Virus genome (UHGV): UHGV-0135730
Length of the DNA: 54,321 nucleotides
From: a virus
Strand: one strand, 5' to 3'
Made by a program: the position numbers and the translations under genes. Below the pieces are notes generated by a model. That model did not search any database. It worked only from the letters and a program-made list of their open reading frames with translations, and was not told the DNA's origin. Below are positions 2,312 to 41,089 of this stretch, one piece after another; within the stretch, counting starts at the first letter, position 1; each line of letters begins with the position of its first letter.

Positions 2312-2355
2312 TATATAACAAAATGGCACTGTCGAAACAATGCCATTTCGTATAC
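2312..2355 (-). promoter_or_regulatory. Candidate sigma70 promoter with upstream TACGAAATGGC motif
   Basis: Minus strand GTATACGAAATGGC-A-TTGTTT-17-TATATA; palindromic arms AAATGGCA/TGCCATTT. Confidence 0.4.
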
Positions 2356-2392
2356 TTTGCGAGGTAGATCACATTTATTGGTGAGAACTATA

Positions 2393-2608
2393 TTACCACT
2401 TAACGAAACGCGCCATAACTCGATTGTCAAAGCTGCCCTTAACAACCCCTTTTGCGTGATCTCCGTAAAATTGCCACGCATCGCCATCATTATCTTTTAC
2501 ATAATGAATACCTACAGCGCCGCGCTTGCACCCATTGAGAAGGTCAACGCTATATGACTCACCAACAGTAAAGTGAACAGTGTCAGAGTAAACACATCTT
2601 GCAAACAT
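2393..2608 (-). CDS. Hypothetical protein
   Basis: 71 aa ORF in gene train. Confidence 0.4.
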   Translation of the reverse strand: MFARCVYSDTVHFTVGESYSVDLLNGCKRGAVGIHYVKDNDGDAWQFYGDHAKGVVKGSFDNRVMARFVKW

Positions 2609-2610
2609 AA

Positions 2611-2862
2611 TCAGAAAACCCCTTTATAATCTGCCGTGTATTTTGCAACCAATTTCCATTCACAATAGTTTTCCATGTCGCGCGGTTGCCAGCCTTTCAT
2701 GCCTACAGCACCACGCACGCCGTGGCGACGATAATTATCGTTATAGTCAGCTACGCACCACGGCTGAAGCACAAACATGTAATTGGCCTCGTTAACCAGG
2801 ATCGCCATCTGCTTTCCTGTTGCCTTATCTTTCGCCCGGAAATAACTTACCCTGATTTTCAT
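2611..2862 (-). CDS. Hypothetical protein
   Basis: 83 aa ORF; start may be a downstream ATG (overlap with upstream gene). Confidence 0.4.
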   Translation of the reverse strand: MKIRVSYFRAKDKATGKQMAILVNEANYMFVLQPWCVADYNDNYRRHGVRGAVGMKGWQPRDMENYCEWKLVAKYTADYKGVF

Positions 2863-3073
2863 TTTGATATACCTCTATCAACATTTCTTCCTCAAGGTTG
2901 GCAGGACGTTTACGGAATACCCCGGCAAAAACCAGATCGTCGAGCAAGTCTTTGCTCTTAAATAGCCATTCCTTCATTATTACCCCATCGTCGCTGCGAT
3001 ATACCACGCTGTTTTTCAGAAAATAAAACGTGTGCGTGTTTGTCTGGAGGTACAGATCTTCGTAAACGTCCAT
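2825..3073 (-). CDS. Hypothetical protein
   Basis: 82 aa ORF in gene train. Confidence 0.4.
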   Translation of the reverse strand: MDVYEDLYLQTNTHTFYFLKNSVVYRSDDGVIMKEWLFKSKDLLDDLVFAGVFRKRPANLEEEMLIEVYQNENQGKLFPGER

Positions 3074-3077
3074 GATG

Positions 3078-3305
3078 TTAACCCTCGACTACTTCCAGCC
3101 CGCGCCCCTTGTCGCCAACGAAGTCCCCCAGGCTGAACGTATACGACCATGCCGGATTAATGTAATGGTCATCAGCGCCAGCGGCTATCAGGTCAGCACC
3201 GTTAATCATGCAAGTGACATTATCACTATGCACAACTTTAACGACCTTACCAACAACCTGTTTCAGTGACGGATAACCGTGATCGTGCAAGAATTTTACT
3301 TTCAC
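3078..3305 (-). CDS. Hypothetical protein
   Basis: 75 aa ORF, tightly spaced. Confidence 0.4.
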   Translation of the reverse strand: MKVKFLHDHGYPSLKQVVGKVVKVVHSDNVTCMINGADLIAAGADDHYINPAWSYTFSLGDFVGDKGRGLEVVEG

Positions 3306-5103: not shown

Positions 5104-5831
5104 TATTCACCCCGTGTCACTCGTTTAATTTCGTTATCAGCCCGCGCCTCTTCTTTGAACAATTCAGCAATGGCGTCTTCATAGAAAGCACGGTATTTCT
5201 TCCACCATGTTGATCGGCTTACCGGAAAAACAAGCTGATTAACCGCCTGTCGGACAAGATCTACAGGGAAACGCGAGTACCCGCGCCCGCCGCAGTGCTG
5301 GCACGTTTTGAACACTGGCATTTCCGCCGCTTCACTGGCTGCTTTATCCGGTACTTCGCCACGACCCTTGCACCGCTGGCAATGGTTTTTAACGTAGCCT
5401 TTGCCGCCGCACCGCGAGCAAACTGTCGATGCGTACTCACAATATGGATGTGGTGAAAGCCCGTTACCGCCGCACTTAGGGCAAACTTTTTCGGTCGCTG
5501 CACTCTGGCAATAATCCCGAAACGCGAAAACGGCAACAAGAATAATGAGATCATTGCGTTTGGCCTCGTCCAGTTCCATAACGTATTCATATTCTTTTGC
5601 CATAGCTCTTAAACGCTCTGTAAGCAAAACTACGGCCTTATGTTTTTCGGCTTGTGATAGTTCCATCTTTCCCAAAAAAGCGCTATAGCCAAGCTCTACG
5701 CGCGATTGCGCCATACCTGCGGCAGTTAGTGCATCCGTAGTATTAAGCGCATCCGGGGACGTGCCCCGGCTTTCATCTGATAAACGCGGTGATTTTGGGA
5801 AGTGGAATTTGAGAATAGATTCCAGATTCAT
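5103..5831 (-). CDS. Q: Late-gene antiterminator Q (lambda Q family)
   Basis: MNLESILKFHFPKSPRLSDESRGTSPD closely parallels lambda Q N-terminus; multiple CxxC zinc-binding motifs. Confidence 0.85.
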   Translation of the reverse strand: MNLESILKFHFPKSPRLSDESRGTSPDALNTTDALTAAGMAQSRVELGYSAFLGKMELSQAEKHKAVVLLTERLRAMAKEYEYVMELDEAKRNDLIILVAVFAFRDYCQSAATEKVCPKCGGNGLSPHPYCEYASTVCSRCGGKGYVKNHCQRCKGRGEVPDKAASEAAEMPVFKTCQHCGGRGYSRFPVDLVRQAVNQLVFPVSRSTWWKKYRAFYEDAIAELFKEEARADNEIKRVTRGE

Positions 5832-6418: not shown

Positions 6419-7020
6419 GCCGCCTTTCTCCTTAAGGCGTCCAATTTAGCCTGATAGACTTTTATGATTTCCTTACATTCTTCTATCGTCCATTTGTGAG
6501 TTTCGTTGTTGTTCTCCAGCGCTACCACCCTGGCGAGGCCAATTTTTCGAATCAGTGCCGGGCGATACCCTCCGATGTTGCCGTCTAGTGTCTGGTTGCA
6601 GTGCCTGCATTGTTTATGGCAATTATCCTCGTTAAAGCGAAGATGTCCGGCGGCGGCTACCGTCCTGTAATGGCCCGCATCCCACCCGCATTGCTCACCG
6701 TAGTAAGTACCGCAAGATATACACGGCAAGCGCGCGTCACGTTCGCGAATATAGGCGTTAAATACATTTTGAACTTGTTTGATCCAATAACTACGCGGAT
6801 TTAACTGCTTCCGCTTCCGGTTGCGCTCTTCCCGCTGGCGGTCGCGGCGTTTCTTCCGCTCCATAGCCTTCATAGCCTTCTCACGGTCGCGGCATAGCTG
6901 ATCAAATTTCAGCTCTTCCAGACACTCATCACTGCACCACGTTTGATTATGGTATTTAGGCTCAAAAAAAACGCCGCAGCATTTGCAACGGCGTTTTATG
7001 GGTTTTTTAGGGTTCTGCAT
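6415..7020 (-). CDS. ninG: NinG (Rap) recombination protein
   Basis: RSYWIKQVQNVFNAYIRERDARLPCISCGT...WDAGHYRTVAAAGHLRFNE..NCHKQC matches lambda NinG; ATG at 7020. Confidence 0.85.
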   Translation of the reverse strand: MQNPKKPIKRRCKCCGVFFEPKYHNQTWCSDECLEELKFDQLCRDREKAMKAMERKKRRDRQREERNRKRKQLNPRSYWIKQVQNVFNAYIRERDARLPCISCGTYYGEQCGWDAGHYRTVAAAGHLRFNEDNCHKQCRHCNQTLDGNIGGYRPALIRKIGLARVVALENNNETHKWTIEECKEIIKVYQAKLDALRRKAA

Positions 7021-7211: not shown

Positions 7212-7291
7212 AATGCTCCCTCCTTTTCAGGTGATTTATACGCATTTCAGCGCTGCCGGATTTTTAAAGAGCATTTTGTTTGCTTGAAGTA

Positions 7292-7366
7292 TACAAAATG
7301 GATACATGCAAACAAGACAAAAAGCGCCATTATGTGATCCGCATCACGCAATGACGCCATTTTGTA
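7292..7366. promoter_or_regulatory. Intergenic regulatory region: divergent TACAAAATGG motifs flanking palindrome TGTGATCCGCATCACG
   Basis: TACAAAATGG at 7292-7301 (+) and 7357-7366 (-); TGTGA-N6-TCACG palindrome at 7333-7348. Confidence 0.45.
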
Positions 7367-7370
7367 AACT

Positions 7371-8153: not shown

Positions 8154-8695
8154 TTTTTGCCCTCAAACGTGAAATAGCGGCGCATGATGATAGTGATCAC
8201 CGTCACCGCTGCCATTTTTGAGATAAACTGCATCGCTGATATTTCCGGCATAAACGCCATAAACGATAGCGTCGGGAAAATTAACGCATCCCCGATGGCT
8301 GAAGCTATATTTGCAGGCCAGCGTTTCGAATCGAAATCACCAGGCAAAACCCGGTAAACACCGCCAGATATAAGCGCACCGGAAACAACCGCGACGAATG
8401 ACGCTATTGCTACCATTCCTGCATCGTAATTTATTAGCACCGTGATTGCGCCAGCGGCGGCGCATGTTGTAGCCGACCATTTCAGGCCGCCGTCATATAA
8501 CAGGAAGTCACGGATCATCATATTGACACATACAGCGGCTACCGTAGTGATCGGAATTACCCACGGGCCGCAATGGTTAACAATAAGGTTGATGATCACG
8601 AAAACGGCGACATAAACGCAGGCCAATAACCTGTCAATTGTCACCTTTTTCATTTGGGTCATACCTCTTATCGCGAATAGCTTCAGATCTGTCAA
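8150..8695 (-). CDS. Multi-pass inner membrane protein, unknown function
   Basis: 181 aa with at least 5 hydrophobic helices; overlaps neighbours. Confidence 0.5.
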   Translation of the reverse strand: MTDLKLFAIRGMTQMKKVTIDRLLACVYVAVFVIINLIVNHCGPWVIPITTVAAVCVNMMIRDFLLYDGGLKWSATTCAAAGAITVLINYDAGMVAIASFVAVVSGALISGGVYRVLPGDFDSKRWPANIASAIGDALIFPTLSFMAFMPEISAMQFISKMAAVTVITIIMRRYFTFEGKK

Positions 8696-10144: not shown

Positions 10145-10145
10145 T

Positions 10146-10850: not shown

Positions 10851-10924
10851 CTTATTTCCCTCCGCACCGTAAACCTTTTGATTTCAGTTCACAAAACGGA
10901 TTCGCGATCACAATACAAAACGTA

Positions 10925-10953
10925 TATTTATGTGATCGCAATCACGATGTCAA
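10925..10953 (-). promoter_or_regulatory. Candidate sigma70 promoter with operator-like palindrome in spacer
   Basis: Minus strand TTGACA-17-TAAATA; the 17-nt spacer contains palindrome TGTGATCGCAATCACG (10931-10946). Confidence 0.5.
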
Positions 10954-14328: not shown

Positions 14329-14358
14329 AATGTAACCTCCGAATGTTTACATTTTGTA

Positions 14359-14649
14359 TTAATGGTAACGGACTTTATCCAGGGGTTTCTCCCCTAAATG
14401 GCGTGGTTGCGTTGCGTGGTAGTAGCTGCCACTTTCATTTTCCGTATACCATTTTACTGATCCTTTGCGACGTTCTTTTTTGCCATCTGGCTTGCATCTT
14501 TCGTCACTTGCCATTCGAATGGCTTTTTCCACATTGTCAGTTTTATTAATTGCAGGTGATGATTTTCTTTCGTTTTCTCTTTTTATCCTTCTGCGTTCCC
14601 TGGCATTTATTTTGCTATCACATTTACCATATATAATTGTAACGCTCAT
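14359..14649 (-). CDS. Arg-rich basic protein, candidate N-like antiterminator
   Basis: First gene after the pL-like promoter and a 340-nt leader; N-terminal arginine-rich motif NARERRRIKRENERK resembles N-family ARM. Confidence 0.4.
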   Translation of the reverse strand: MSVTIIYGKCDSKINARERRRIKRENERKSSPAINKTDNVEKAIRMASDERCKPDGKKERRKGSVKWYTENESGSYYHATQPRHLGEKPLDKVRYH

Positions 14650-14997: not shown

Positions 14998-15040
14998 AAT
15001 ATACGCCCCGTAAAACACCGAGTCAATCCATTTTGTATAC
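14998..15040 (-). promoter_or_regulatory. Early leftward promoter (pL-like)
   Basis: Minus strand GTATACAAAATGG-A-TTGACT-17-TATATT. Confidence 0.6.
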
Positions 15041-15107
15041 TTTTTTAAAATATTTTATATACTATTGATATTTAAACAATAAATAGCGTTTTCTGTTTAC
15101 GTTTTGG

Positions 15108-15145
15108 TGTTTTTTCGAACAAAGAAAAGCCGCCACCAGGCGGCT
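15108..15145 (-). terminator. Rho-independent terminator after repressor gene
   Basis: Hairpin AGCCGCC-ACCA-GGCGGCT followed by T-rich run on minus strand. Confidence 0.6.
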
Positions 15146-15150: not shown

Positions 15151-15798
15151 TTATGGCAGGTTTACGATCTTCGCATCAACAACCACGCCAATGATTTTTG
15201 ACTCTGGATTCATAGGGATCGGCGGATACAACGGATTCAGTGAACGCAAAAGTTTTCGGCCTCCATCAATAATCAACTGTTTAAACGTAGGTATCTGCCC
15301 TTCCTCCAGTTGTGCTATAACAAGTTTTCCGTCAATAGCTGGCGCGTGCGGGTCAACGAGTATCATAGTCCCCGCCGGGATGCTTAACCCCTGCGGTGCG
15401 TTCATTGATTCACCTTTAGCAACCAGCCAATAACTATCATCCGAACAAATAACGCTAGTAGCAACGTGTGGCAATGTTGATCGGTGTGTGCCTTCCATAT
15501 TGTTTGCTACATCCTTCCAGTCAACAACCGGGTAACTGCCTAAATCACGCGGTGGCGCTCCCGACAACGTGTTAGAAACAGAATCATCAATGACCATTCC
15601 GTCATGAGTAACAGTAAATTGCCGACGCCCAAGCGCCCGCATGATACGCGCAATATCTTCAAGATTCGGCTCACGGCGACCGTTCAGCCAGTGAGAAAGG
15701 CCGCCTTTGGTTATCCCCATAAGATCAGCCAATGAATCCTGGCTCATGCCCTGCGCCCGCATGAGTTGTTTTGCTAAGTCATACCATTTTGTTTTCAT
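15151..15798 (-). CDS. CI-like prophage repressor (HTH plus S24 LexA-like peptidase)
   Basis: N-terminal HTH (QDSLADLMGITKGGLSHWLNG), C-terminal S24 domain with GESM serine motif. Confidence 0.85.
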   Translation of the reverse strand: MKTKWYDLAKQLMRAQGMSQDSLADLMGITKGGLSHWLNGRREPNLEDIARIMRALGRRQFTVTHDGMVIDDSVSNTLSGAPPRDLGSYPVVDWKDVANNMEGTHRSTLPHVATSVICSDDSYWLVAKGESMNAPQGLSIPAGTMILVDPHAPAIDGKLVIAQLEEGQIPTFKQLIIDGGRKLLRSLNPLYPPIPMNPESKIIGVVVDAKIVNLP

Positions 15799-15857
15799 GT
15801 CGCTACCCTATAACCTAAAAAATTTTGATGCAAGTCACAAAACGTGTTTTTCAAGCC

Positions 15858-15885
15858 TTGACCTGTTAGCGCCATTATGTAAACT
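15858..15885 (+). promoter_or_regulatory. Early rightward promoter (pR-like) within operator region
   Basis: TTGACC-16-TAAACT; flanked by TTGATGCAAG / CTTGCAATGATGCAAGG operator-like repeats. Confidence 0.45.
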
Positions 15886-15961
15886 TGCTGACAAGGTAAA
15901 GCCATACTTGCAATGATGCAAGGAAAAAGATAAGGGAAAGCACAAAAAGGCCGACGCCTTA

Positions 15962-15995
15962 AGCTCTTTAAAAATCCGGTGTCGCTGCGAAGCGA
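15962..15995 (+). promoter_or_regulatory. Candidate nutR (boxA-like plus short hairpin)
   Basis: AGCTCTTTA followed by hairpin TCGC-TGCGAA-GCGA in the rightward leader. Confidence 0.25.
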
Positions 15996-16103
15996 AAAAC
16001 AAATATCACGCAACGGCGGGATCTGTTGAGCGGTCAGTCACTGCTATCTAATGCTAATGGGATGCCCGCCCGCGCGTTCACTCTAACCATAGGAGAAAAG
16101 AAT

Positions 16104-16349
16104 ATGTATTACGTGCGCAAGGCTTTTGATATTCGCCTGAATAACAATGATCCGGCGCAAAAACTCATCTTAATTGCACTGGCAACAAAGGCCGGATGCA
16201 ACGGCAAAAGCGAAGTAACGCCAGAAGAGATCGCGGAAATGTGCGAAATTTCGTTACGCGATACTATCTCTGCACTGCATCAACTGAAAAGAAGCGGCCT
16301 AATCAGCCAGCTGCCAGGTTTCTTCTGTGTTTATCAGTTAATGTTTTAG
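16104..16349 (+). CDS. HTH protein, paralog of replication-initiator N-terminal domain (possible Cro/cII-like regulator)
   Basis: First rightward gene, AGGAGA RBS; LILIALATKAGCNGKSEVTPEEIAEMCEISLRDTISALHQLKRSGLI parallels N-terminus of 16356-17363 product. Confidence 0.55.
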   Translation: MYYVRKAFDIRLNNNDPAQKLILIALATKAGCNGKSEVTPEEIAEMCEISLRDTISALHQLKRSGLISQLPGFFCVYQLMF

Positions 16350-16355
16350 TTCGTC

Positions 16356-17363
16356 ATGAGGTTAATGCTTATGAGTATGCGGCTAATGGTAGAGGTCTTC
16401 CATACTGAGGTTGGCGACCCAATGCACAAACTGGTGCTGTTGAAGTTGGCTGATAACGCTAATGATAACGGCGAGTGTTACCCTTCTTACCATCACATAG
16501 CAAAGGAGTGTGAGATCAGCAAAAGAACAGCTATGAGGGCTGTAGACTCACTTTGTGAAAAAGGGTTGTTGATTAAACAACCAAGATATTTAATCGGAGG
16601 AAAAGAGCAAACTAGTAATTTCTATGTAATAGTCCTTCCGTCATTGCATGGTAGTGTCACTATGACACCGGGGGTAGTGACACAGAGTCACCAGGGTAGT
16701 GACACAGAGTCACCGGGGGTAGTGTCACAGAGTCACCCTAACCAGTCATATATAACCAGTAAAGAGAACATTAAAAACAATACACTCCGTGTATTGGAAA
16801 AAGACCGGTCTATCAGCGAAGAAGATCGGGAGGTTAATCTGGCGGCATTGCGTTGCCTGGCCTTCTACAACGACAAGGCAGGATGCAAATGTCGTGATGC
16901 AAAGCCATTCGTAGAACTACTGACAGAAACAAAAACACGTAAAGCGTATACGGAGGATGAAATCACATTAGTGATTGAGTGGGCTTTAACACAATGGCGT
17001 AGCCGTGGTGGAACACCTAAGCCTATAAACATTTGCCGGGTAACTAAATTTGATGGGTATCTGGCTGACGCTGAAAAATGGCACAAACTGTCAGCCACTG
17101 CAAACGCTGCCGACGTAGTGGAGGCATTTAACAGCACGTTTGATGGCCTGTTGCCACCTGCCGAACTGGATCGGGATCTTGAACGCAAGATTTATGCGTT
17201 CACTGACTACCTGAAAGACAAAAGCATCAACGGCTTTGTCGCCTACTTTGAAACGTTCAAAAACACGGCTTCAGATTTTTACTTCGGCAATGGCTTCACA
17301 GCGACACTTGATTTCCTGCTTAAACCAAAAACGCTACGTGATACACGATGTGGCGCTCTTTGA
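16356..17363 (+). CDS. Replication initiator (lambda O-like, winged-HTH N-terminus)
   Basis: HTH replication-protein-like N-terminus; iterons within coding sequence as in lambda O; start may be ATG 16371. Confidence 0.7.
   Translation: MRLMLMSMRLMVEVFHTEVGDPMHKLVLLKLADNANDNGECYPSYHHIAKECEISKRTAMRAVDSLCEKGLLIKQPRYLIGGKEQTSNFYVIVLPSLHGSVTMTPGVVTQSHQGSDTESPGVVSQSHPNQSYITSKENIKNNTLRVLEKDRSISEEDREVNLAALRCLAFYNDKAGCKCRDAKPFVELLTETKTRKAYTEDEITLVIEWALTQWRSRGGTPKPINICRVTKFDGYLADAEKWHKLSATANAADVVEAFNSTFDGLLPPAELDRDLERKIYAFTDYLKDKSINGFVAYFETFKNTASDFYFGNGFTATLDFLLKPKTLRDTRCGAL
16650..16737. repeat. Origin iterons (4 direct repeats, about 22-bp period) inside initiator gene
   Basis: GGTAGTGACACAGAGTCACC at 16673, 16695, 16718 plus degenerate copy at 16650; each contains GTGAC/GTCAC inverted half-sites; AT-rich stretch follows. 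Confidence 0.8.
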
Positions 17364-17496
17364 CCAACCACGATCTGCAAAAATCCAAAATTACCCACAA
17401 AACAACCTCACCGGCGAGCTAAAACACGCATGGTGCTACGACTGCATATCTTTAGCGGTCTAGCTCGTTATAGAGCGTTTTAGAGAGGATTTTAAA

Positions 17497-17598
17497 ATGG
17501 ACGGTAAACACGTTTTCGCCCTGGCCTTTGCCATCGCTGCTGCAATCGCTGTTAACGTCGCTTTGTTCGGCGGTTTGTTCCTTCTTATCAATCCATAA
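17497..17598 (+). CDS. Small hydrophobic peptide (33 aa)
   Basis: MDGKHVFALAFAIAAAIAVNVALFGGLFLLINP; GAGAGGA RBS; intergenic between initiator and antirepressor. Confidence 0.4.
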   Translation: MDGKHVFALAFAIAAAIAVNVALFGGLFLLINP

Positions 17599-17730
17599 CC
17601 TTCATACCAGTCTGTAAATCAAAAATTAGCCACCTGAAAGCGCCTCTGACGCAATAAGACACTGCAACCTGTGCAAACGGGTTACGCGGTGGGATTTTTG
17701 CGTTGTAGCGCGTTTTACGGAGAAATTACA

Positions 17731-18474: not shown

Positions 18475-18507
18475 GTATACATTTTGTTAACTGGAGGGAT
18501 TAACATT

Positions 18508-19626
18508 ATGTCGCAAAGAAAAATCAGCGATGAGCAATTGATCGCTGAATACAACAACGGTTTAACGTACAAACAGATTGCTGAGAAGTACGGCATGTCT
18601 AAACGCAATGTCGAGCGCCTGGGCGCAAAACTGGCGAAACGTGGTTTATTATCAACACGCCGCGCGCCTGGTTTTGGCGTCAATGGCGAGTCGTTGCTAG
18701 TCGATAAAAACGGCAATGTGATCATGCGCTGGATTAAAACAGCCCGTGACCGCGACGAAATGGAACAGCTAATGGAAGCGGCCCGCGACGCTTTCACGGA
18801 TGAAATACCACGCGCGGAGGCTGTGCCAGTGCCTGAAATTGATTTTCAAAAAAGCCTGGCACTTTACCCGGTATTTGACCTGCATATCGGGGCGCTTGCT
18901 CATAAAGCTGAATGCGGAGAGAGCTACGATACTGGGATCGCTGAGCGCGTGTTGAATGACTTCTTTGACTACGCTGTTGGCGCTGCTCCGATGTCTGAAA
19001 AAGCAGTACTGCTCCTCGGTGGCGATCTACTTCATTCTGACGGTATGGTCCCGGTGACGCCAACAAGCGGGCACATTCTTGATCAAGATAGTCGCTACGC
19101 AAAACTTGTTTATGTGGCGATCCGGTCTGTCCGGCGGGCGGTAGGAAAGATGTTGTTAAATCATAAAGATGTTGAAATCCAGGTGTTATCAGGCAATCAC
19201 GATCAGTCGGGCATGATTTGGCTACGTGCGGCGCTGGCGGCTTTTTACGAAGATGAACCGCGCGTGACGGTTGATGTATCACCTGCTATTGTCCACCACA
19301 CACAGTACGGTAAAACATTCCTTGCATATCATCACGGTCATACTATCAAAAAACCTGAAAATTTGTTGTCTGCCTGCGTATCTGACTGGCGTGAGGATTT
19401 CGGCAAGTCGGCGGCTGTTTACGCTCACACTGGACATCTACATCACCAATCTGTTGTTGAAACATCATTGGGGATCGTTGAACACCACGGCACGTTAGCT
19501 GGCAAAGACGCATATTCGACTAATGGCGGCTGGCGGTCGCGGCGGCTGGCAGCGGTGATTATTTACAGCCCGGATCATGGGGAAATTGGGCGCTTTGTTT
19601 ATTACCCTGAATATTCCATTTTGTAA
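18508..19626 (+). CDS. HTH domain fused to calcineurin-like metallophosphoesterase
   Basis: N-terminal HTH (LTYKQIAEKYGMSKRNVERL); phosphoesterase motifs DLH, GGDLLH, GNHD, HHGH, GHLHH in canonical order. Confidence 0.6.
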   Translation: MSQRKISDEQLIAEYNNGLTYKQIAEKYGMSKRNVERLGAKLAKRGLLSTRRAPGFGVNGESLLVDKNGNVIMRWIKTARDRDEMEQLMEAARDAFTDEIPRAEAVPVPEIDFQKSLALYPVFDLHIGALAHKAECGESYDTGIAERVLNDFFDYAVGAAPMSEKAVLLLGGDLLHSDGMVPVTPTSGHILDQDSRYAKLVYVAIRSVRRAVGKMLLNHKDVEIQVLSGNHDQSGMIWLRAALAAFYEDEPRVTVDVSPAIVHHTQYGKTFLAYHHGHTIKKPENLLSACVSDWREDFGKSAAVYAHTGHLHHQSVVETSLGIVEHHGTLAGKDAYSTNGGWRSRRLAAVIIYSPDHGEIGRFVYYPEYSIL

Positions 19627-19644
19627 ACCGGAGGTAATGACATA

Positions 19645-22533: not shown

Positions 22534-22709
22534 TGGTTCGTTACTACATGGCTAAACCTACAGGCATTTTGTATAAGATTGATGGCGAATATGTTTATTA
22601 CTTTCACAATCAGGCGCGTGAGTGGCGATTATGTCACGCGCACTTTCAGCACGAAATAGAAAACCATCCTGAATATTTTATCAAAGTTGACAATGTAACG
22701 GTGGCGTAA
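22533..22709 (+). CDS. Hypothetical protein
   Basis: 58 aa ORF with overlapping stop-start. Confidence 0.35.
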   Translation: MVRYYMAKPTGILYKIDGEYVYYFHNQAREWRLCHAHFQHEIENHPEYFIKVDNVTVA

Positions 22710-22723
22710 TTGAGGATAAGAAA

Positions 22724-23383: not shown

Positions 23384-23613
23384 TGGATAAAACGGCAACA
23401 ATTCTTCTTAGTCGCCCTGCCATCTGCCGTATGCTTGGGGGAATTAGCAGGGGAACGTTCTATTCATGGCGTAAAAAGTGGGAGGAAAACGGAACTCCAT
23501 TCCCGGACCCTGTTGATGTGTTGGGGACCGGGAGGGGCGTCATGTACCGCTATCAGGATGTAATGCGGTTCTTTGATAAGATCGGATTAACGCCAGCCAG
23601 GGATAAGACGTAA
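23383..23613 (+). CDS. AlpA-family DNA-binding protein / excisionase candidate
   Basis: Short HTH protein (ICRMLGGISRGTFYSWRKK) adjacent to integrase; 3' end overlaps int 3' end convergently. Confidence 0.6.
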   Translation: MDKTATILLSRPAICRMLGGISRGTFYSWRKKWEENGTPFPDPVDVLGTGRGVMYRYQDVMRFFDKIGLTPARDKT

Positions 23614-28235: not shown

Positions 28236-28412
28236 CGCAATGACTCCATAATGTTAATTAACGGAATAATTCTACCATTTTGTGATCTGTGTTGCATTTT
28301 CTGCTTACACAAAATGTATTTGTTGATTTTTATCAATATACGAAATGTGGTTTTGTCGGATATTTAAGTCACCGGATGAACCGGACGAACCAACAAGAGC
28401 GAGGATTCAAAG

Positions 28413-28661
28413 ATGAAAAACGTATTCAAAGTGGTTTTGTTCGCTGCGGCTGTAGCTCTTACTGGTTGTGCTGTTGACAAAGAGGCTGCATTGCATAACC
28501 TGCCGAACAGCGGAGTGATTCCACAGGATGTTGTCTATGATGGTAGCGGTCATCTTGTCTATGACACTGAAAAGCTACCGTATACTGGGCAATGGTGTCA
28601 TGAACTCGATCACAACATGCGCCGCATCGGTAGCCCGTCAAACTGTGTAGCTAACTACTAA
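28413..28661 (+). CDS. Small lipoprotein (opposite-strand cargo between fibre genes)
   Basis: Signal peptide with lipobox LTGC (MKNVFKVVLFAAAVALTGCA); own terminator. Confidence 0.65.
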   Translation: MKNVFKVVLFAAAVALTGCAVDKEAALHNLPNSGVIPQDVVYDGSGHLVYDTEKLPYTGQWCHELDHNMRRIGSPSNCVANY

Positions 28662-28694: not shown

Positions 28695-31600
28695 AACCTG
28701 AGAATGTACCAGAACCGCGCGACACAATGACAGTCGGCGAGTTTATATATGCCCCCTTACTATTTTGAGCGGATACACTAATTATCACTGTAACGCTCCT
28801 GTTAGCTACTGATGCTGCGTGCATAACAAGGCGCTCTTCGCCAGTCATAGAAAGTTGTTTCTGCGAACCGCTGATGTTTATCGTACATCCGCCGAAGCCC
28901 TTAACGTTTGCTATGACACAAACATGTCGGGCGTATGCTGCGTCTGTTGTATCGTAGTACTGAATTGTTTTTTGCAATACGCCATTTTGTAACCTGCTAA
29001 CGTCAGATCCCGTATACATGTTCGCAACGTCACCGATAAATGTCTTCGCTTCCAGTTGTCCTGAGAATTTACCGTTGGTTGCGTACACTGTACCGTTAAA
29101 CACCCCATCATTAGCGTATACCGTGCCCCTTATTGTTGCCTGGTTAAATACTGCTGCACCGTTTTTGTTTATCGCCCAGCCTGTACCGTTTTCCCAGCTG
29201 TAATTACTGGATTGTATTTGCTGAGCTATTTTTGCAGTAGTGATCGATGCGTCTTTAATAAACGCTTCTTTCACATACATTGCACCGTTAGACACATAGA
29301 ATGGCGTTGTATATGTGCCGTTTGCAGCCGTCATCAACACGAAGCGGTCAACAAGGAAGATACACTGCGATTGGACGTTAGTACCGTTGCCAGTCAGCCC
29401 AAGCGACATACCTGTCGCATACTTCATGCCGTTGTTGTCGGTTGCCAGCTTGATGGAATACGTCGCATCGACATTACCTTTGAAGTCGGTTAACGCTTTC
29501 GAAGTAGTCTGTATAGCTGTTGTGTTCCCGTTAACGGTCACTGTTAGCTGATCGATTTTGCTTGATAATGCCTCGTCAGCCGTTGCCATTGTCTGTGACC
29601 ATTCTGTAATACTTGAGTTTACAGAATCGAAAGACGCTGAGATCTGGCCGAATTTTTCCGCGCTTGATGCCTCATGCGTAGAAAGCGCCGTTGATACCTC
29701 AGACACCTTCGAGTTAATCGTACTGGTAAGCGATGAGTTAAGGTTACTTATCGCGTCAGTGCGTGCCTTCGTTTCGTCAGCGACGGCCTTGTCGAGACGG
29801 TTAACGTTGCTTGTCACTTTGCCATCAAGGGTTGAAATTGATGCGTTCACGCCAGTGATGGCTTGTGCTCTGGCGCTGGACTCGTCAGCAATCGCCTGGT
29901 CCAGTCTGCTAACCTCGGATTCAGTGTTGCTTTCGAGGGTGTTAATGCTCGCATTCACTCCACTGATAGCTTCTGTTCTTGCGCTGGTTTCGTTGGCAAT
30001 AGCCTGATCTAAACGTTTAACGCTGGCGTCGGTTTTCTTGTCGAGCGCTGAAATGCTTGCGTTAACGTTGCTCACCGCCTGGCTGCGTGCGTTGGTTTCG
30101 TCAGCGATAGCCTTATCGAGACGTGAAACGCTGGCATCGGTTTTCTTATCAAGATCCGTGATCGATGCTTTTACCACGCCGATTGCTTCGGCTGTAGCTT
30201 TTTTCTCTTCAGCGATAACACTGTCAATACGATCAATCTGCGCGCTTGTTTCCTTGCGACCTTTCTTGTACTGGGCCGTAAGCGTAACACGCGTGTTGGT
30301 TTGAGCGATTGAGTTGTTAATCAGAGCAATAGATGCGTTTTGCAGGCTTGCTTTGGTCTGGCTTATTTCGTCGCTGTTCTTGTCAACGTTATTTTCAACC
30401 TTGCCAAGCTCGGCGCTGATTCCAGATATAGCCTGAGCACGGGCGCTTGATTCGTCAGCAATAGCCTGGTCTAAGCGTTTTACGCTGGCGTTTGTGTTAC
30501 TTTCGAGCGTTGTTAAATCAGCTTTAACCTCTGTTATTGCGTCGCTTCTTGCCTGCGTTTCATCTGCTATTGCTTTATCGAGTCTGGAAACGCTGGCGTC
30601 TGTTTTGCTTTCAAGGTTGCTTATTGATGCTTTCACATCGCTCACAGCCTGGGCGCGGGCGCTGACCTCGTCAGCAATAGACTGGTCAAGGCGTTTAACT
30701 GCCGAATTGGTGTTACCTTCAAGCGTGTCAATACTTGCTTTGACACTACTGATAGCTTCAGTTCTTGCACTGGTTTCGTCTGCTATTGCTTGATCCAGGC
30801 GTTTAACGCTGGCGTCGGTTTTCTTGTCAAGCGCTGAAATGCTTGCGTTAACGTCACTGACTGCCTGTGTGCGGGCGTTCGTTTCGTCTGCAATAGCCTG
30901 ATCAAGTCTATTGACGCTGGCATCGGTTTTCTTGTCGAGATTGCTTATTGATGCGTTCACGCCGTTAATTGCTTCGGCGCGGGCACTGGTTTCGTCAGCT
31001 ACTGCGCGTTCCACGCTGGAGATCTGACCCTTGAGGTTGGAATCCATCGTGTTCATTTCTGCCGTGATGGTTTTCAGAGATTCAGCCGTGGCCTGTTTCT
31101 CATCAGCAATAACGTTGTCAATGCGGTCAATTTCAGCCTTCGTCTCTGTCCTGCCTTTCTTGTACTGTGCAGTGAGAGTAACCCGCGTGTTGGTCTGAGC
31201 AAGGGAGTTGTTGATAAGTGCCAACGACGCGTTTTGCAGGCTTGCTTTTGCTTGCGCCAGTTCACTGCCAACTTTTTCGCTGGATACCTCCAGAGAGTCT
31301 ATTCTTGCCTCATGCTGTCCAATATCGTCGGCGTTTTCCCCAACCTTTTTGTAAAGATCTTCCGTCTCTTTTTTCAGTGTGTCCGTGTCAGCTTTTATGG
31401 CCCCTGTTTCTGTGATTAGGCCGTCCGTATCAGTCCTCAATTCGTCAGTGATGTTTGTCAGGTTGTCAGTGTCAACCCTTAAATCGTCAGTGATGTTTGT
31501 CAGGTTATCAGTTGCAGTTTTGAGGCTGTCAGTAGCGTCTTTAAGGTCATTTGTAGCGCTTTCGATAAGGTCGGCGCGGTTGCCAAGATCTTCAATATCG

Positions 31601-36020: not shown

Positions 36021-36084
36021 TGTGATCGCCATCACGCTAAATCATACCAAAACGGTTGATCGCGTTTTTTACAATACGTATATT
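36021..36084 (+). promoter_or_regulatory. CRP-like palindrome plus sigma70 promoter for cargo cassette
   Basis: TGTGATCGCCATCACG (36021-36036) centred about 62 bp upstream of predicted start; TTGATC-17-TATATT at 36056-36084. Confidence 0.5.
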
Positions 36085-36100: not shown

Positions 36101-36286
36101 ATGGTTAACAAAATGGCGCGGAGGTGTGAGGTGGATGATAAGGTGTGGAGGTTGACGGTGTTCCTTAGTGATGGCAGGAAAATGACTGTAGCTCTGTATA
36201 AGGATGAAGGCGAGGCACTGACTGACGCGCTTTTACTTGCTGAAGACGATCGCGTTTTGGGGTACAGGATCGAACCTGTCAAATGA
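36101..36286 (+). CDS. Hypothetical protein (cargo cassette)
   Basis: Start at MVNK with AAGGAAG RBS. Confidence 0.5.
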   Translation: MVNKMARRCEVDDKVWRLTVFLSDGRKMTVALYKDEGEALTDALLLAEDDRVLGYRIEPVK

Positions 36287-36298
36287 GAGGTTAACGAA

Positions 36299-36646
36299 AT
36301 GCAAAAATATAGTCTTGATGTGTGGTTAAGTGGTTGCAAGGAGTGTTTCGGATTATTTGATAGCGAAGAGGCAGCTTTGGAAGAAGGAAGGATTCTTGAA
36401 TGTAGTTTAGGCCATCCAGTGAAATATGCTGCTAATCCGGTGCAGGTAAATGATGAGGTGGAAAACATGAACCCGAAAGATATTAACTTTAACGTCAATG
36501 TTGAATTTGCAGGCTCTATGGATCAGGCTTGCCCTGGTGAAATCCACGCAAAAGGCTTCCCGGCTGACGATCCTGAGGCAAAACGCGAATACGAAAAAGC
36601 GGCGAAAGACTTCTGCATTGATAACCTGGGCGCATTCGATAAATAA
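36299..36646 (+). CDS. Hypothetical protein (cargo cassette)
   Basis: 115 aa ORF on strand opposite to tail operon. Confidence 0.55.
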   Translation: MQKYSLDVWLSGCKECFGLFDSEEAALEEGRILECSLGHPVKYAANPVQVNDEVENMNPKDINFNVNVEFAGSMDQACPGEIHAKGFPADDPEAKREYEKAAKDFCIDNLGAFDK

Positions 36647-36655
36647 GGCGGCAAC

Positions 36656-36904
36656 ATGGGGCGGCGCAATCACGGCGATTATGTGTACACGTTGAAACAG
36701 GCCGCCCGCCTAGTTGGTTATCATGAACACGAATTTATTGATTTGCTGATTGAGCGCGGGATACTGTACCAGGTCTGTTTAACGCTGTACCCGAAAGCGA
36801 AATACCTACAGGAAAAGTTATTCATCATCATGACGGATGAAAACCAGGTTAACCATTCATTCGTCACGGATAAGGGCGTTAATTATCTGCGTGATAACTT
36901 ATAG
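36656..36904 (+). CDS. Putative HTH DNA-binding protein (cargo cassette)
   Basis: YTLKQAARLVGYHEHEFIDLLIERGIL resembles MerR/excisionase-type HTH. Confidence 0.45.
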   Translation: MGRRNHGDYVYTLKQAARLVGYHEHEFIDLLIERGILYQVCLTLYPKAKYLQEKLFIIMTDENQVNHSFVTDKGVNYLRDNL

Positions 36905-37639: not shown

Positions 37640-37668
37640 ACATCTTTACGCGCCTCTACGCGAAAAAT
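37640..37668 (-). promoter_or_regulatory. Conserved 29-nt element upstream of M (second copy at portal start)
   Basis: Minus strand ATTTTTCGCGTAGAGGCGCGTAAAGATGT; near-identical to 49853-49881. Confidence 0.45.
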
Positions 37669-37739
37669 GAGAAATTCATCACAAGAATTATAACCAGTTT
37701 ACAAAATGGCTTCACATAAGGCGTGACAAGATGTATATA
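37668..37739 (+). promoter_or_regulatory. CRP-like site plus TACAAAATGG-type promoter for cargo cassette
   Basis: TGAGAAATTCATCACA (37668-37683); GTTTACAAAATGGC then TTCACA-17-TATATA (37711-37739). Confidence 0.5.
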
Positions 37740-37779: not shown

Positions 37780-37935
37780 ATGGAACGCTATGTGGTTGTG
37801 ATGCTGAACAAAGCATTCGAACAGGTGGAAGTTGCGATTGTGAAGGGCTTTGATGATGCATTCAAATACGGTCAATTCATGATGAATGCAAAAGAAGATG
37901 AATACCGTGATTTCTTCCTGAAAGTGGTCAACTAA
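37780..37935 (+). CDS. Hypothetical small protein (cargo cassette)
   Basis: 51 aa ORF. Confidence 0.45.
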   Translation: MERYVVVMLNKAFEQVEVAIVKGFDDAFKYGQFMMNAKEDEYRDFFLKVVN

Positions 37936-37953
37936 TGGATTGCGGGGTGGGTT

Positions 37954-38208
37954 ATGAAATTGGTAATGATTGGTAAAAACCTGAAAGCACAGAAAAACGC
38001 ACAGGACCGGATCATCAAAAAGGGCAAGGCTTTATTAAATGCTTTCCTGAAAAAAGAGGCCAACCCCAAAAAATTACGCGATGGCTACGGTTATAAATTT
38101 GACATCAACCCCGATTGGCGGTTATTCAGCGAAGATTTAAAGATGTGGTTAATTATTGACCACCTGGAATATAACAGGCACTGTGGGGTGAAAGGTGCTC
38201 ACAAGTGA
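37954..38208 (+). CDS. Hypothetical basic protein (cargo cassette)
   Basis: 84 aa ORF. Confidence 0.5.
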   Translation: MKLVMIGKNLKAQKNAQDRIIKKGKALLNAFLKKEANPKKLRDGYGYKFDINPDWRLFSEDLKMWLIIDHLEYNRHCGVKGAHK

Positions 38209-38239
38209 CACGGATTTGAATGTTGCGGAGGAAAACAAA

Positions 38240-38410
38240 ATGAAAAATCCGGCAAATAAAAGCAACGTAAAACGCATAGCCTGGGTGCTAAAATATATGG
38301 ATAGTAAAGGGGATACATATACATGCCCATTTTTCAGGTATACTGACGCGGTATTTGCCAGAAGTGTACACGGAGGGAAAATTGAGAGAGGATATACAAG
38401 ATTTGAGTAA
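38240..38410 (+). CDS. Hypothetical small protein (cargo cassette)
   Basis: Start at MKNPANK with GGAGG RBS. Confidence 0.45.
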   Translation: MKNPANKSNVKRIAWVLKYMDSKGDTYTCPFFRYTDAVFARSVHGGKIERGYTRFE

Positions 38411-38448
38411 ATTTATTCACGAAATCAATAACATGACGAAGGTTAACA

Positions 38449-38628
38449 ATGGTTATTCATGAGACTGAAGAATGCAGAAGTATTAATCTTAGTATTGAAG
38501 ATGACGGGAGATTATGGATCGTTAGCGACTGCGAGATGATTGTAATAGACCAAAAGCAAGCTGACGAACTAATAAGAGCATTACAGCTTTATGCAAACGG
38601 CGAATTTAAAAATGATGAAATTGAATAA
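38449..38628 (+). CDS. Hypothetical small protein (cargo cassette)
   Basis: 59 aa ORF ending at terminator. Confidence 0.45.
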   Translation: MVIHETEECRSINLSIEDDGRLWIVSDCEMIVIDQKQADELIRALQLYANGEFKNDEIE

Positions 38629-38632
38629 AGAT

Positions 38633-38665
38633 AACCCCGGCATTGTACCGGGGTTTTGTTTATTT
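38633..38665. terminator. Bidirectional rho-independent terminator
   Basis: Hairpin CCCCGG-CATTGTA-CCGGGG followed by TTTTGTTTATTT. Confidence 0.7.
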
Positions 38666-41008
38666 CCTGCGAGGTTGCAACATTCCTCCGGGTCGTTGCG
38701 ATTCCCTTGCCATCATTTTCATCGCGACGCGTTCCATCGTCTGTTCAAGTCTGCGACTGTCTTCGTCGCTAAATCCGTTTGTGGTCTGTACGGTGATGTT
38801 AACAGGCATATTGATGCCGCCGCCGCTGAAGAGATCACGGCCAGGAATTACCCTACCATTCTCGCCAGGAATCATATACTGACGCCCGTTGCTCGTCTGG
38901 AATAGCTCTGGGATTCCGTGCTCACCTACGCGATACAGGCTGCCACCATTAACAGAACCACCATTATAACGCCCGCCACCAAAGATTGACGTTGCCAGCG
39001 ACATGATCGCAGAAAGCGCCGCAGCACCAGCCGCCGCCCAGCTACCACCAGTTGACGCCGCAGTCGCCGCCGCCGCTGGGGCCGCCGCCGCTGCAATCTG
39101 GCCTTGTGCCGCTACTGCGCCAGCCGTTGTACTTGCCTGGGTAGCCTTGCTTTGCGTTTCCATCATCAATTGATCTGCTATCCAGTTAGCGGCAATTTCT
39201 GACAGTTTGTTGCCAACGGTGTTAAGTATGCTACTTCCCAGGTTGGCGAAAACCTCGCTTAATGATTGAGTGCCGTTTAGCAGTCCGGTAAGGGCATTAC
39301 CCATGCCACCCTTCAGGCCGCTGACGCACGCACCAATCAGGCCGTTTGTTTCGCTTTGCGCCTGCCATTGTTCCCATTTCAGATCTCTGATCTGTTGTTC
39401 ATATTCCAATAGCGCCTGTTTCTGTTGCGCCTCTGTAGCGCCCAAGTCTATCAGCATTTGTTTGCGAACGGCCCATTCATTTTGTGCCTGCTTGATTGGG
39501 TCAATTTCTCCCTTAAGCTGGTCCATCGGGCTGACTATGTGATCCCATTTGTCGCGTAGCTCATCAACAGGGATTTGCGCCAATTCGTCCTTCAGTTCCT
39601 TGCCTATCCCTTTCTGCGCGGCCTTGTACTCAAGTAGGGTTATTTTGCCCTGGGCGAATGCAGCTTCAATGGCCTTGCCGTTCTCTAATGCTTTGCGCAT
39701 AGCGGCGGCGTCCTTGTTGTACTGGTCGGACACTTTTATGCCTTCATCACCAAGCCGATCAGCTTCAGATTTCTTGTCCTTTTTGCCCTTTTTCCCTTTT
39801 TTAGGCTTACCGACTGGCTGATCGAATCCGGTGATCTTGCCATCGTCAGCCTCATCCTGTTTCTGCATTAACTCATCATAGGCGGCGGTCGCGTTTTTAA
39901 TGTCGTTTGCAAACGTCATGACTTTGCCGACGGTGGGGCCAAATTTTTTCTCGTTGTTGCTGTTTAGCTCTTCCTTGCGTTTATCGACGATCTCCTTCAT
40001 CCACTTGTAACCATCCATTAGCGCTTTGATTGGCGTTACCATTTTGATGATTTCTTCCGCCACCTCACCAGCCTTAACAGCAACGTCGTCAAACATGTCG
40101 ATGAACTCGTTACCAGCGGTTTTAAGTGTGTTGAAACAGGTTGCGGCGAATTTTGCGCCTTTACCCAATCCCTCAACGCCACCAGTGATTAAGTCTATTG
40201 CTGTTACAACGCCGTCAGATATGCCGAAAAGATCATCAAGCTGTTCGACAAGTCCCATAACCTCAACTTTAAGCTCGTTGAAGGCCATGCCGGATGTGCG
40301 AGGCAACTGCGCAAACTTCTCGTTTGTTTCCTGCGTAGCGGCCTGGATCGCGTTAAGCATCCTTTCAGCCGTGATCTTGCCGTCCAGCATTTCAGCGCGG
40401 AACTGACCCATAGACAACCCCATTTGGCGGGCCATTTCCTGTATGATTGTTGGTGTGTTGTCACGTATTGAGTTAAATTCCTCAGCCTGCAACACGCCAG
40501 CATCAATAGCCTGGCGGAACTGAAGCATGGAGTTTGATAGTTGTTCCGCAGACACGCCGCCCAGGTTGCCGAGTTTTTGCAGCGTGCTAACCAGGTTGAG
40601 TACCTGGCCTTCTGTAGCGGATGTGTTTTTTAGCGATATAGCAAGACCTTGCCACAGGGCACCAGTATCCTTGAGGCTTTGGCCTGTTTCTTTTGATATA
40701 TCTTTCAGTCTGTTGAAAACACGTTCCGTGGCCTCCGCTTCACCTGTAAGCAGTTTGATTTTTACGCGAAGCATTTTCGCTTGCTCCGCCATGTCAATAA
40801 ACTGGCGTACAGCCTCCGCAGCAAGTAGCAAATGGATAACCCTGGATAGCGCTTTGATTGAAGTCTTAAGCGTGTTCACCTGGCGGTCAGCGCGTTTTGC
40901 GCCACGCTCGATGCTGTCAAAAGCCTGGTCTGCCTGTCGTTGAGCAACGAGAAGTTGACCAGTTTTTGCATCAACTTCGTAGTAAATTGTACCTAAACTA
41001 GTTGCCAT
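38660..41008 (-). CDS. Tail tape measure protein
   Basis: 782 aa, coiled-coil rich with Gly/Ala-rich segment; between chaperone and M. Confidence 0.85.
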   Translation of the reverse strand: MATSLGTIYYEVDAKTGQLLVAQRQADQAFDSIERGAKRADRQVNTLKTSIKALSRVIHLLLAAEAVRQFIDMAEQAKMLRVKIKLLTGEAEATERVFNRLKDISKETGQSLKDTGALWQGLAISLKNTSATEGQVLNLVSTLQKLGNLGGVSAEQLSNSMLQFRQAIDAGVLQAEEFNSIRDNTPTIIQEMARQMGLSMGQFRAEMLDGKITAERMLNAIQAATQETNEKFAQLPRTSGMAFNELKVEVMGLVEQLDDLFGISDGVVTAIDLITGGVEGLGKGAKFAATCFNTLKTAGNEFIDMFDDVAVKAGEVAEEIIKMVTPIKALMDGYKWMKEIVDKRKEELNSNNEKKFGPTVGKVMTFANDIKNATAAYDELMQKQDEADDGKITGFDQPVGKPKKGKKGKKDKKSEADRLGDEGIKVSDQYNKDAAAMRKALENGKAIEAAFAQGKITLLEYKAAQKGIGKELKDELAQIPVDELRDKWDHIVSPMDQLKGEIDPIKQAQNEWAVRKQMLIDLGATEAQQKQALLEYEQQIRDLKWEQWQAQSETNGLIGACVSGLKGGMGNALTGLLNGTQSLSEVFANLGSSILNTVGNKLSEIAANWIADQLMMETQSKATQASTTAGAVAAQGQIAAAAAPAAAATAASTGGSWAAAGAAALSAIMSLATSIFGGGRYNGGSVNGGSLYRVGEHGIPELFQTSNGRQYMIPGENGRVIPGRDLFSGGGINMPVNITVQTTNGFSDEDSRRLEQTMERVAMKMMARESQRPGGMLQPRRK

Positions 41009-41027
41009 GATTTAACCTCATGAAAAT

Positions 41028-41089
41028 TGTGATCTAGATCTCTATTCTATACAAAATGGCTTCAGTTCAACGAATACATTTTGTATAAA
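41028..41089 (+). promoter_or_regulatory. CRP-like site plus TACAAAATGG-type promoter for cargo cassette
   Basis: TGTGATCTAGATCTCT (41028-41043) centred about 60 bp upstream of predicted start; TATACAAAATGGC then TTCAGT-17-TATAAA. Confidence 0.5.

Follow-up and report, generated by a model that had tools for sequence, protein, structure and literature searches.

The 54,321-nucleotide (nt) viral genome UHGV-0135730 (the window, i.e., the whole stretch of DNA analyzed in this study) is a genome that is complete and belongs to the mEp021 (“mEpimmI”) group of temperate coliphages. It is matched over long stretches, with 84–93% nt identity, by MagusPhagus and by the six sequenced “mEpimmI” phages (mEp021, mEp010, mEp013, mEp044, mEp515, and mEp554), the mEp021 record running in the opposite direction to the window. 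The mEpimmI phages are Nus-dependent, non-lambdoid, temperate phages from human feces; they are reportedly as frequent as lambdoid phages in the source collection of human fecal isolates, form a single immunity group with immunity given by Rep021, and have three defined nut sites (PMC11893012). This study concerns a short motif, TATACAAAATGG in its common form, which recurs at promoters of the window, and its relation to the CI-like repressor gene (Rep; 15151..15798, minus strand).

The CI-like repressor, proposed here as the binding protein of the motif, contains the Pfam domains HTH_3 and Peptidase_S24. With an E-value of 1e-18 against lambda repressor 3bdn and both the HTH_3 and S24 domains present, it is a true lambda-CI relative. 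The leftward early operon begins just below the repressor gene and comprises an N-like antiterminator, recombination genes, Q, and lysis genes before running on across the window ends into the head and tail genes. Replication genes are found in the rightward operon (16026–23613). In the tail region there are reverse-oriented short cassettes of small genes, here called cargo (~36130–36904, 37780–38628, and 41268–41684), and a lipoprotein (exclusion) gene is located at 28413–28661.

With one mismatch at most, TATACAAAATGG occurs ten times in the window against 0.45 expected, and none of 100 shuffled sequences reached this number (maximum three); with up to two mismatches there are 26 matches against 6.7 expected. 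The recurrent element that the original prediction described as abutting the -35 hexamers of several promoters is thus real, and all coordinates given in that prediction proved correct. We found further copies at 10888, 10912, 14346, 18476, 19613, 28306, 28337, and 36068. Motif-like matches within genes (48641-48652, 49658-49672, 28982-28993, 22561-22575, 2496-2510, 5573-5587, and 6761-6775) are about as numerous as chance predicts and were not counted as sites; those at 48641 and 22561 are conserved together with their genes. The motif is specific to the mEpimmI phage group: its density is 2.0–2.7 copies per 10 kb in the mEpimmI loci (n = 73) and only 0.02 per 10 kb in 50 loci from other phages with a tail gene in common.

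The motif is contained in a 15-bp pseudo-palindrome, TATACA-NNN-TGTATA, of which it represents the strong half, the center, and the start of the weak half. The common form TATACAAAATGG has a strong half TATACA, an A/T center, and a weaker half that begins with TGG. Near-perfect 15-bp palindromes are found at 41073 (AATACATTTTGTATA), 10912 (AATACAAAACGTATA), 14346 (TTTACATTTTGTATT), and 36068 (TTTACAATACGTATA), while the remaining sites combine one strong half with one weak half. The copies 41048/41076 and 2343/2318 are the two arms of 40-bp inverted repeats, each composed of two 15-mers with their centers 25 bp apart. The relaxed symmetric pattern TATACANNNTGTATA with three mismatches is modestly enriched (35 vs. 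22), and the weight matrix described below discriminates far better.

The sites are scattered over about 20 places. They are found at all three of the early promoters located ahead of nut sites, at another five or six promoters, and at three gene junctions inside early operons. Nine promoters carry sites centered at -41 and/or -16, and paired sites are 24-25 bp apart (pL, 10912/10888, 37698/37723, and 41048/41073). The same layout is shared by five promoters (pL, 2343 on the minus strand, 37698 and 41048 on the plus strand, and 41076 on the minus strand): the motif, 1–2 nt, a -35-like hexamer, 17 bp, and a TATAWW -10. The predicted abutment on the -35 hexamer was recovered at pL, where the motif (15028-15039, minus strand) ends 1 nt before TTGACT, and at 2343-2354 (minus strand), 37698-37709 (plus strand), and 41048-41059 (plus strand), which places the motif at about -48 to -37. 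Sites at both -41 and -16 are present at pL (strong and weak, respectively), at the internal promoter near 10900, and at the cargo promoter 37698 (moderate and weak). The back-to-back promoters 41048/41076 share two strong sites at -41/-16, the promoter at 2343 has a site at -42 and a degenerate arm near -17, and a -16 site alone is found at pR, at the nutR2 promoter, and at the cargo promoter 36068. All three nut-associated early promoters thus bear a site (nut sites according to PMC11893012). The TGTAWA half faces downstream at all -16 sites and at all three junction sites.

For the analysis of conservation, related loci around the repressor gene and around a tail gene were taken from IMG/VR, and each site region was aligned. 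Across the 19–34 distinct sequences aligned for each region, hardly any change is seen in the motif or the promoter hexamers, in contrast to the variable promoter spacers. The DNA-binding domain of CI is 95-100% identical in 43 out of 43 close relatives, in agreement with the invariance of the site and with the existence of only one immunity group (PMC11893012).

The N-terminal domain of the repressor (MKTKWYDLAK...ITKGGLSHWLNGRREP) recurs in CI repressors that have other C-terminal domains and are encoded by prophages with other genome backbones. Repressors with the same domain are encoded by L049/L047, an Enterobacter prophage (L183), a Citrobacter prophage (L184), the sister group L181/L182, Salmonella phages L and SEN22, and VT2-Sakai-type Stx phages. 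Where measured, the identity over this domain to the outside repressors is 54-61%; for the class of phage L, SEN22, and VT2-Sakai it is given as 47-61%, with an M-K-x-(K/P)-W start and a (K/Q)GxxxHW recognition helix in common. The recognition helix of the sister group is identical. A contig scan with an alignment of the DNA-binding domain found nothing, and a query of 71 amino acids (aa) against a protein database returned fragments only. The site in the outside phages reads (T/A)ATAC(A/G)-NNN-(T/C)GTAT(A/T). Classical phages carry three copies in the cI–cro gap and two or three in the cI–N/nut gap, with neighbors 25–33 bp apart. Sister group L181 likewise has three operators in its right operator region (OR), and the left operator regions (OL) of L183, L184, and SEN22 show the same 24-25 bp operator spacing as the window. 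In the VT2-Sakai record, the depositors annotated these copies as putative operators. In total, six other phage backgrounds combine this DNA-binding domain with the site. As a separate observation, a Rha/ANT-domain antirepressor gene of L181 is immediately preceded by two perfect copies of TATACAAAATGG with a distance of 39 bp (8554-8610; Logan SRR23253299); the sister-group repressor probably controls an antirepressor.

We built a symmetric weight matrix from 14 operators of L183, L184, and L049 only; all scores in bits given here refer to this matrix. Applied to the window, it yields 11 hits at or above 12 bits, where 1.5 would be expected, and 17 at or above 10 bits, where 4.5 would be expected, with the motif sites of the original prediction ranking at the top. 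Eight out of the 17 hits of at least 10 bits fall into the ~7% of the genome outside open reading frames (ORFs; p ~1e-5 with a generous ORF mask), and matrix hits within genes are close to the chance expectation. On the whole 41-kb genome of SEN22, the matrix recovers exactly five sites (two OL, three OR) and none elsewhere, and on mEp021, MagusPhagus, and the window it gives 13–17 dispersed hits.

We consider it probable that the motif is the conserved part of a 15-bp operator (TATACA-NNN-TGTATA) for the lambda-type CI of this phage (15151-15798), because the 15-mer marks OL and OR of same-domain repressors in unrelated prophage backgrounds. A binding site for the CI-like repressor had been one of two readings put forward originally, and the comparative evidence (the element shared by pL and pR, the same site at the operators of same-domain repressors, and the outside matrix) argues for it.

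The pL operator TATACAAAATGGATT (15025..15039, minus strand) is centered at about -41 and scores 16.7 bits. In 34 distinct relatives it is invariant except for G/T at motif position 12 and two changes among the three flank bases, while the spacer varies. Its spacing suggests that TTTACGGGGCGTATA (15000..15014, minus strand), centered at about -16 and 25 bp from the first site, is a weak second pL operator. This site has only 3.2 bits but lies in the top 0.2% of window positions, and relatives keep AC(A/G)-NNN-CGTATA. The core promoter found by the promoter scan, TTGACT-17-TATATT (14998..15026, minus strand), is followed by nutR1, and both of its hexamers are invariant in relatives. Upstream of pL, CACCAAAACGTAAAC and TTTAAATATCAAT (minus strand) form invariant blocks within 15058-15110, and 22 bp upstream of the strong pL operator there is a degenerate copy of the motif.

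At pR, the operator GCGCCATTATGTAAA (15869..15883, plus strand) is centered at -16 and lies over the spacer and the -10 of TTGACC-16-TAAACT (15858-15885, plus strand; promoter scan). The variant that had been reported to overlap the pR-like region is found at 15872-15883 as CCATTATGTAAA on the plus strand, and many relatives have the one-mismatch form CCATTTTGTAAA at pR. No element other than the motif is common to the pL and pR regions, and the operators overlap both divergent early promoters flanking the repressor gene, as in lambda-type phages. The region 15805-15845 (minus strand) contains a possible repressor maintenance promoter, TTGTGA-17-TAGGTT, with its start ~5-6 nt before the ATG; its mRNA would possibly have almost no leader, similar to the lambda cI transcript made from pRM.

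Several points weigh against CI as the reader of these sites. The outside operators were chosen with the TATACA-N3-TGTATA pattern from the window, which makes the matrix less than fully independent; this circularity is lessened by the annotation of VT2-Sakai and by the control on the whole SEN22 genome. The strong site at pL is located at -41, where lambda CI activates rather than represses, and its -16 site is weak. The pR site (15869-15883) has a low score of 4.4 bits. We looked at pR for the three tandem OR operators of a cI/cro switch and found one clear site, together with a 6.5-bit candidate at 15834-15848. The OR region further contains invariant palindromes that are not operator-like, CTTGCAATGATGCAAG at 15907-15922 and TGATGCAAG, also at 15826, which may be the site of a second regulator. 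Most sites keep TGG instead of the symmetric TGT, and a simple symmetric dimer does not explain this asymmetry. Finally, the operators and promoters of the group were left undefined in the work on Rep021 and the nut sites (PMC11893012), and a literature search for mEpimmI operators turned up no description.

A further reading has another phage regulator as the main reader of the sites, e.g., the product of 16026-16349 as a Cro equivalent. No Cro-type HTH_3 gene was found by Pfam opposite the repressor (15799-16026), whereas the sister group L181/L182 and the classical relatives have one. The first rightward gene (16026-16349) encodes a winged-helix (HTH_36-like) protein, with a weak HTH_36 match. 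Since lambdoid Cro shares the operators of CI, a second reader of the same sites would be expected. However, the N-terminal domain of CI tracks the site across unrelated backgrounds, and those phages carry ordinary Cro-type genes and not the winged-helix protein. A second reader would moreover add to CI binding and not replace it. We regard a regulator other than CI as the main reader as improbable.

The third early promoter precedes nutR2. Its operator TATCCATTTTGTATA (7290..7304, minus strand; 16.3 bits) lies over the spacer and the -10 of TTGTTT-16-TATACT, directly upstream of boxA, and is invariant in 34 relatives save for single-base changes in a few. An upstream copy, TTTACAAAATGGCGT (7354..7368, minus strand; 5.5 bits), comes right after the stop codon of the methyltransferase gene and overlaps the foot of the terminator hairpin t4. 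The pair described originally as divergent at this place was found again as an inverted pair, 7290 (plus strand) and 7357 (minus strand), 55 nt apart. In the region 7262-7365 (minus strand), the cytosine methyltransferase gene is followed by this strong terminator hairpin (dG, the folding free energy, -24 kcal/mol; z -4.8) and a T-run, downstream of which come the conserved promoter and then boxA and boxB of nutR2. NutR2 appears to have its own promoter, because TTGTTT-16-TATACT sits between the terminator hairpin and nutR2 boxA/boxB. The top of the t4 hairpin doubles as a CRP-like palindrome. The variant at 7327 (ACATAATGG) was rejected as an operator, as it belongs to the stem of the t4 terminator hairpin.

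Beyond the early promoters, the leftward operon has an internal promoter with a near-perfect palindromic operator, AATACAAAACGTATA (10912..10926, minus strand; 19.2 bits), which is conserved in 32 relatives. Its partner, AATCCGTTTTGTGAA (10888..10902, minus strand), is located 24 bp downstream over the spacer and the -10 of TTGTGA-16-TGAACT. The operator TATACGAAATGGCAT (2340..2354, minus strand) is centered at about -42 of TTGTTT-17-TATATA, a promoter that precedes a block of small genes ahead of the lysis genes, and is conserved in MagusPhagus. The degenerate inverted arm GTGCCATTTTGTTAT (2315..2329, minus strand; <2.5 bits) lies over the spacer and the -10 of the same promoter and is a possible weak site only.

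The cargo promoters follow the same organization. At TTGATC-17-TATATT, the operator TTTACAATACGTATA (36068..36082, plus strand; 15.5 bits) is centered at -16 and conserved in 27 relatives. This promoter drives the cassette 36130-36904, in which 36656-36904 encodes an 82-aa protein with a KilAC/ANT antirepressor-domain match (Pfam ANT, E-value 1e-6). The second cargo promoter, TTCACA-17-TATATA, has the operator TTTACAAAATGGCTT (37698..37712, plus strand) centered at -41 and a weak partner, GTGACAAGATGTATA (37723..37737, plus strand; 6.0 bits), centered at -16 and 25 bp from the first; in 28 relatives CAAGnTGTATA is largely kept in this partner, while the spacer varies. The operator TATACAAAATGGCTT (41048..41062, plus strand) takes the -41 position for the rightward cargo promoter and the -16 position for the leftward promoter before the tape-measure gene. 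The reverse holds for AATACATTTTGTATA (41073..41087, plus strand), 25 bp from 41048, which is the top hit of the window with 19.9 bits. Neither arm varies among 30 relatives, including those that carry different cargo downstream. The prediction of one regulon linking immunity and cargo promoters is supported at the sequence level.

In the divergent region between the tail-fiber and lipoprotein genes, two operators were found: TACACAAAATGTATT (28306..28320, plus strand; 15.9 bits), conserved in 19 relatives, and TATACGAAATGTGGT (28337..28351, plus strand; 11.3 bits), which has an FNR-like box on one side and the -10 of the lipoprotein promoter on the other. The FNR-like box is a perfect match to the FNR consensus (TTGATTTTTATCAA, 28323-28336), centered at -41.5 from the GATATT -10 (28359-28364) and lying between the two operator copies upstream of the lipoprotein gene (28413-28661). 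Relatives keep TTGATnnnn(A/G)TCAA, and the box suggests that the lipoprotein gene is controlled anaerobically.

CRP-like sites (TGTGA-N6-TCACA, allowing one mismatch) are also enriched, with eight in the window against 1.63 expected. CRP-like sites are found at 2358-2373, 7333-7348, 10931-10946, 15824-15839, 36021-36036, 37668-37683, and 41028-41043. Relative to the predicted starts of operator-bearing promoters, six out of the eight are positioned at -59.5 to -62.5 or -70.5, and a seventh such site (41028) has two mismatches. In relatives, conservation extends to one half-site or to both, but not to the N6. This arrangement suggests class I CRP control of early and cargo promoters.

The original prediction had offered, as its second reading, a specialized UP-like element, i.e., a docking place for the C-terminal domain of the RNA polymerase alpha subunit between a class I CRP site and the -35, duplicated among promoters and read by no phage protein. 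The position of the motif at -48 to -37 of five promoters and the CRP-like sites at about -60.5 or -70.5 agree with it, and the ACAAAATG segment fits seven out of nine positions of the proximal UP subsite consensus AAAAAARNR. An UP-like element accounts for the -41 copies only, however. Equally conserved copies lie over the spacer and the -10 (pR, the nutR2 promoter, and 36068), others are found around +1, and alpha cannot be the reader of copies downstream of a -10 (10912) or at Shine-Dalgarno junctions (14346, 18476, and 19613). The G/C positions of the motif are invariant, the motif is absent from the other coliphages sharing tail genes (0.02 per 10 kb, as given above) although an element of the host polymerase should not be phage-specific, and the same 15-mer marks the operators of homologous repressors. 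We therefore hold the UP-like element to be very unlikely. Several other identities were discarded by inspection of the aligned sites by eye. A sigma-54 promoter would require a TGGC...TTGC spacing 3-4 bp longer than that present; IHF, Fis, DnaA, TyrR, marbox, and LysR-type sites gave no fit across the sites; and the TG is in the wrong register for an extended -10 element. The motif is also no part of the nut sites, since boxA and boxB are downstream and distinct, and it is not merely the -10 of a divergent reverse promoter, which fails at pL where the other strand has no -35.

A different question is the sign of regulation at promoters with their only good site at -41 (37698, possibly 2343). 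Here CI could act as a class II-type activator of weak promoters, so that some cargo would be switched on in lysogens and off again at high CI levels through the weaker -16 site. In lambda, OR2 and OR3 are located at about -42 and -19 relative to pRM, and CI bound at OR2 activates pRM; the -41/-16 geometry is that of OR2 and OR3. The -35 hexamers of the cargo promoters are weak (TTCAGT, TTCGTT, and TTGTTT), and lysogens commonly express cargo genes of the kind of the exclusion lipoprotein; Lpp exclusion has been demonstrated from plasmids only. On the other hand, the combination of a strong -41 site with a weak -16 site is also that of pL, a promoter which has to be silent in a lysogen. The two sites at 41048/41076 are both strong, which puts a strong site over the -10 of each promoter, and the lipoprotein promoter has one operator between its -10 and the FNR-like box. 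Activation by CI at these promoters therefore seems doubtful to us, if conceivable.

Three sites are located at gene junctions inside the early operons. The operator AATACAAAATGTAAA (14346..14360, minus strand; 16.6 bits) occupies the junction of the N-like gene with the following gene, immediately ahead of the Shine-Dalgarno sequence of the latter. It is nearly invariant in 24 distinct relatives (14 displayed), and the sister group has a site at the same junction (L181 position 11280). The operator TATACATTTTGTTAA (18476..18490, plus strand) is found directly upstream of the Shine-Dalgarno sequence of gene 18484-19626. Relatives largely retain its half-sites TATACA and TGT(A/T)A but differ in the central 3 bp and have non-homologous left flanks, the signature that would be expected of a dimer-read site with an uncontacted center. 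The operator ATTCCATTTTGTAAA (19613..19627, plus strand) precedes the Shine-Dalgarno sequence of the helicase gene directly, and its counterpart in the sister group is a site ahead of the DnaB gene (L181 position 5255). A promoter reading of 14346, 18476, and 19613 was rejected because the start site would lie past the ribosome-binding site. All three are putative repressor sites in short intergenic gaps inside transcription units, as is the case for stoperators, and relatives and the sister group conserve their positions.

From the enrichment, positions, and conservation of the sites and their identity with the operators of same-domain repressors, we infer how CI would bind in this phage, with what cooperativity, and with what sign at each promoter. 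Dimers of CI would bind the 15-mers, and site pairs 24-25 bp apart (~2.3 helical turns, as in lambda OL/OR) would be filled cooperatively by two dimers. The -16 sites overlap the -10 hexamer, where bound CI would block RNA polymerase. The -41 sites have the -35 on one side and, at about -60, a CRP-like site on the other; CI bound there could prevent CRP-dependent activation because the alpha C-terminal domain docks at this position at class I CRP promoters. In a lysogen, CI would thus be expected to silence the three nut-preceding early promoters, the internal promoters of the leftward operon, and the promoters of the reverse-oriented cargo cassettes in the tail region. The junction sites may act as roadblocks to residual transcription of the early operons, comparable to stoperators (PMC9283540).

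In its widest form, which we put forward tentatively, CI would be a genome-wide regulator with ~20 sites and three modes of action, namely occlusion at -16, pRM-like activation or CRP anti-activation at -41, and roadblocks at junctions, combined with CRP (at about -60) and FNR wiring. If this is true, cargo expression and the lytic decision would read both the repressor level and gut-relevant host physiology. The analysis yields a predicted operator sequence with its 15-bp architecture and a map of ~20 sites. These suggest that a lambda-type repressor exerts control beyond the two classical operator regions, at cargo cassettes, internal promoters, and possibly elongation, a dispersed control known so far from unrelated repressors (P1 C1, mycobacteriophage L5). 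Cross-talk is also predicted to be possible with the widespread Stx-phage and phage L-type repressors, which read nearly the same site.

Among known systems, the protein and its site probably belong to the phage L/VT2-Sakai class of lambdoid repressor–operator pairs. The repressors of this class (phage L c2, SEN22, and VT2-Sakai cI) have a like DNA-binding domain and the same 15-bp site, (A/T)ATACA-NNN-TGTA(T/C)T, with neighbors ~25 bp apart. Their sites are confined to OL (two) and OR (three), whereas the window phage has one clear OR site, one strong pL site, and ~15 dispersed sites, and most of its copies carry TGG in the weak half, unlike this class. Lambda CI has the same architecture (a helix-turn-helix and an S24 domain) and pseudo-palindromic operators with a consensus half and a variable half, neighbors being ~24 bp apart. 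Its sites are 17 bp long and of another sequence, while those of the window phage have 15 bp, lack the triple OR, and are dispersed. The site of the 933W repressor, defined experimentally, is 15 bp long and rotationally symmetric, with an invariant A-C at positions 4-5 and a poorly conserved center, a layout like the one found here; it has only five sites, and cooperative binding was not reported (PMC3317979). The numbering of the 933W recognition helix (S41, K42, K46) differs, and this repressor is an analogue only, since a shared class of DNA-binding domain could not be confirmed.

The C1 repressor of phage P1 is an unrelated protein that binds as a monomer. Its ~22 sites are dispersed over the genome and serve many operons (PMC8546580), a dispersal like that in the window phage. 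The P1 sites are asymmetric and 17 bp long, while those of the window phage are pseudo-palindromic. Many stoperators of the Cluster A mycobacteriophages (L5, Bxb1) lie in short intergenic gaps, and the sites at 14346, 18476, and 19613 resemble them in position. Stoperators are numerous dispersed sites of the immunity repressor, some of them inside transcription units, and terminate elongation (PMC9283540). They are asymmetric and bound by a monomeric two-domain repressor, whereas the site of the window phage is pseudo-palindromic and its repressor is of the lambda type and presumed dimeric.

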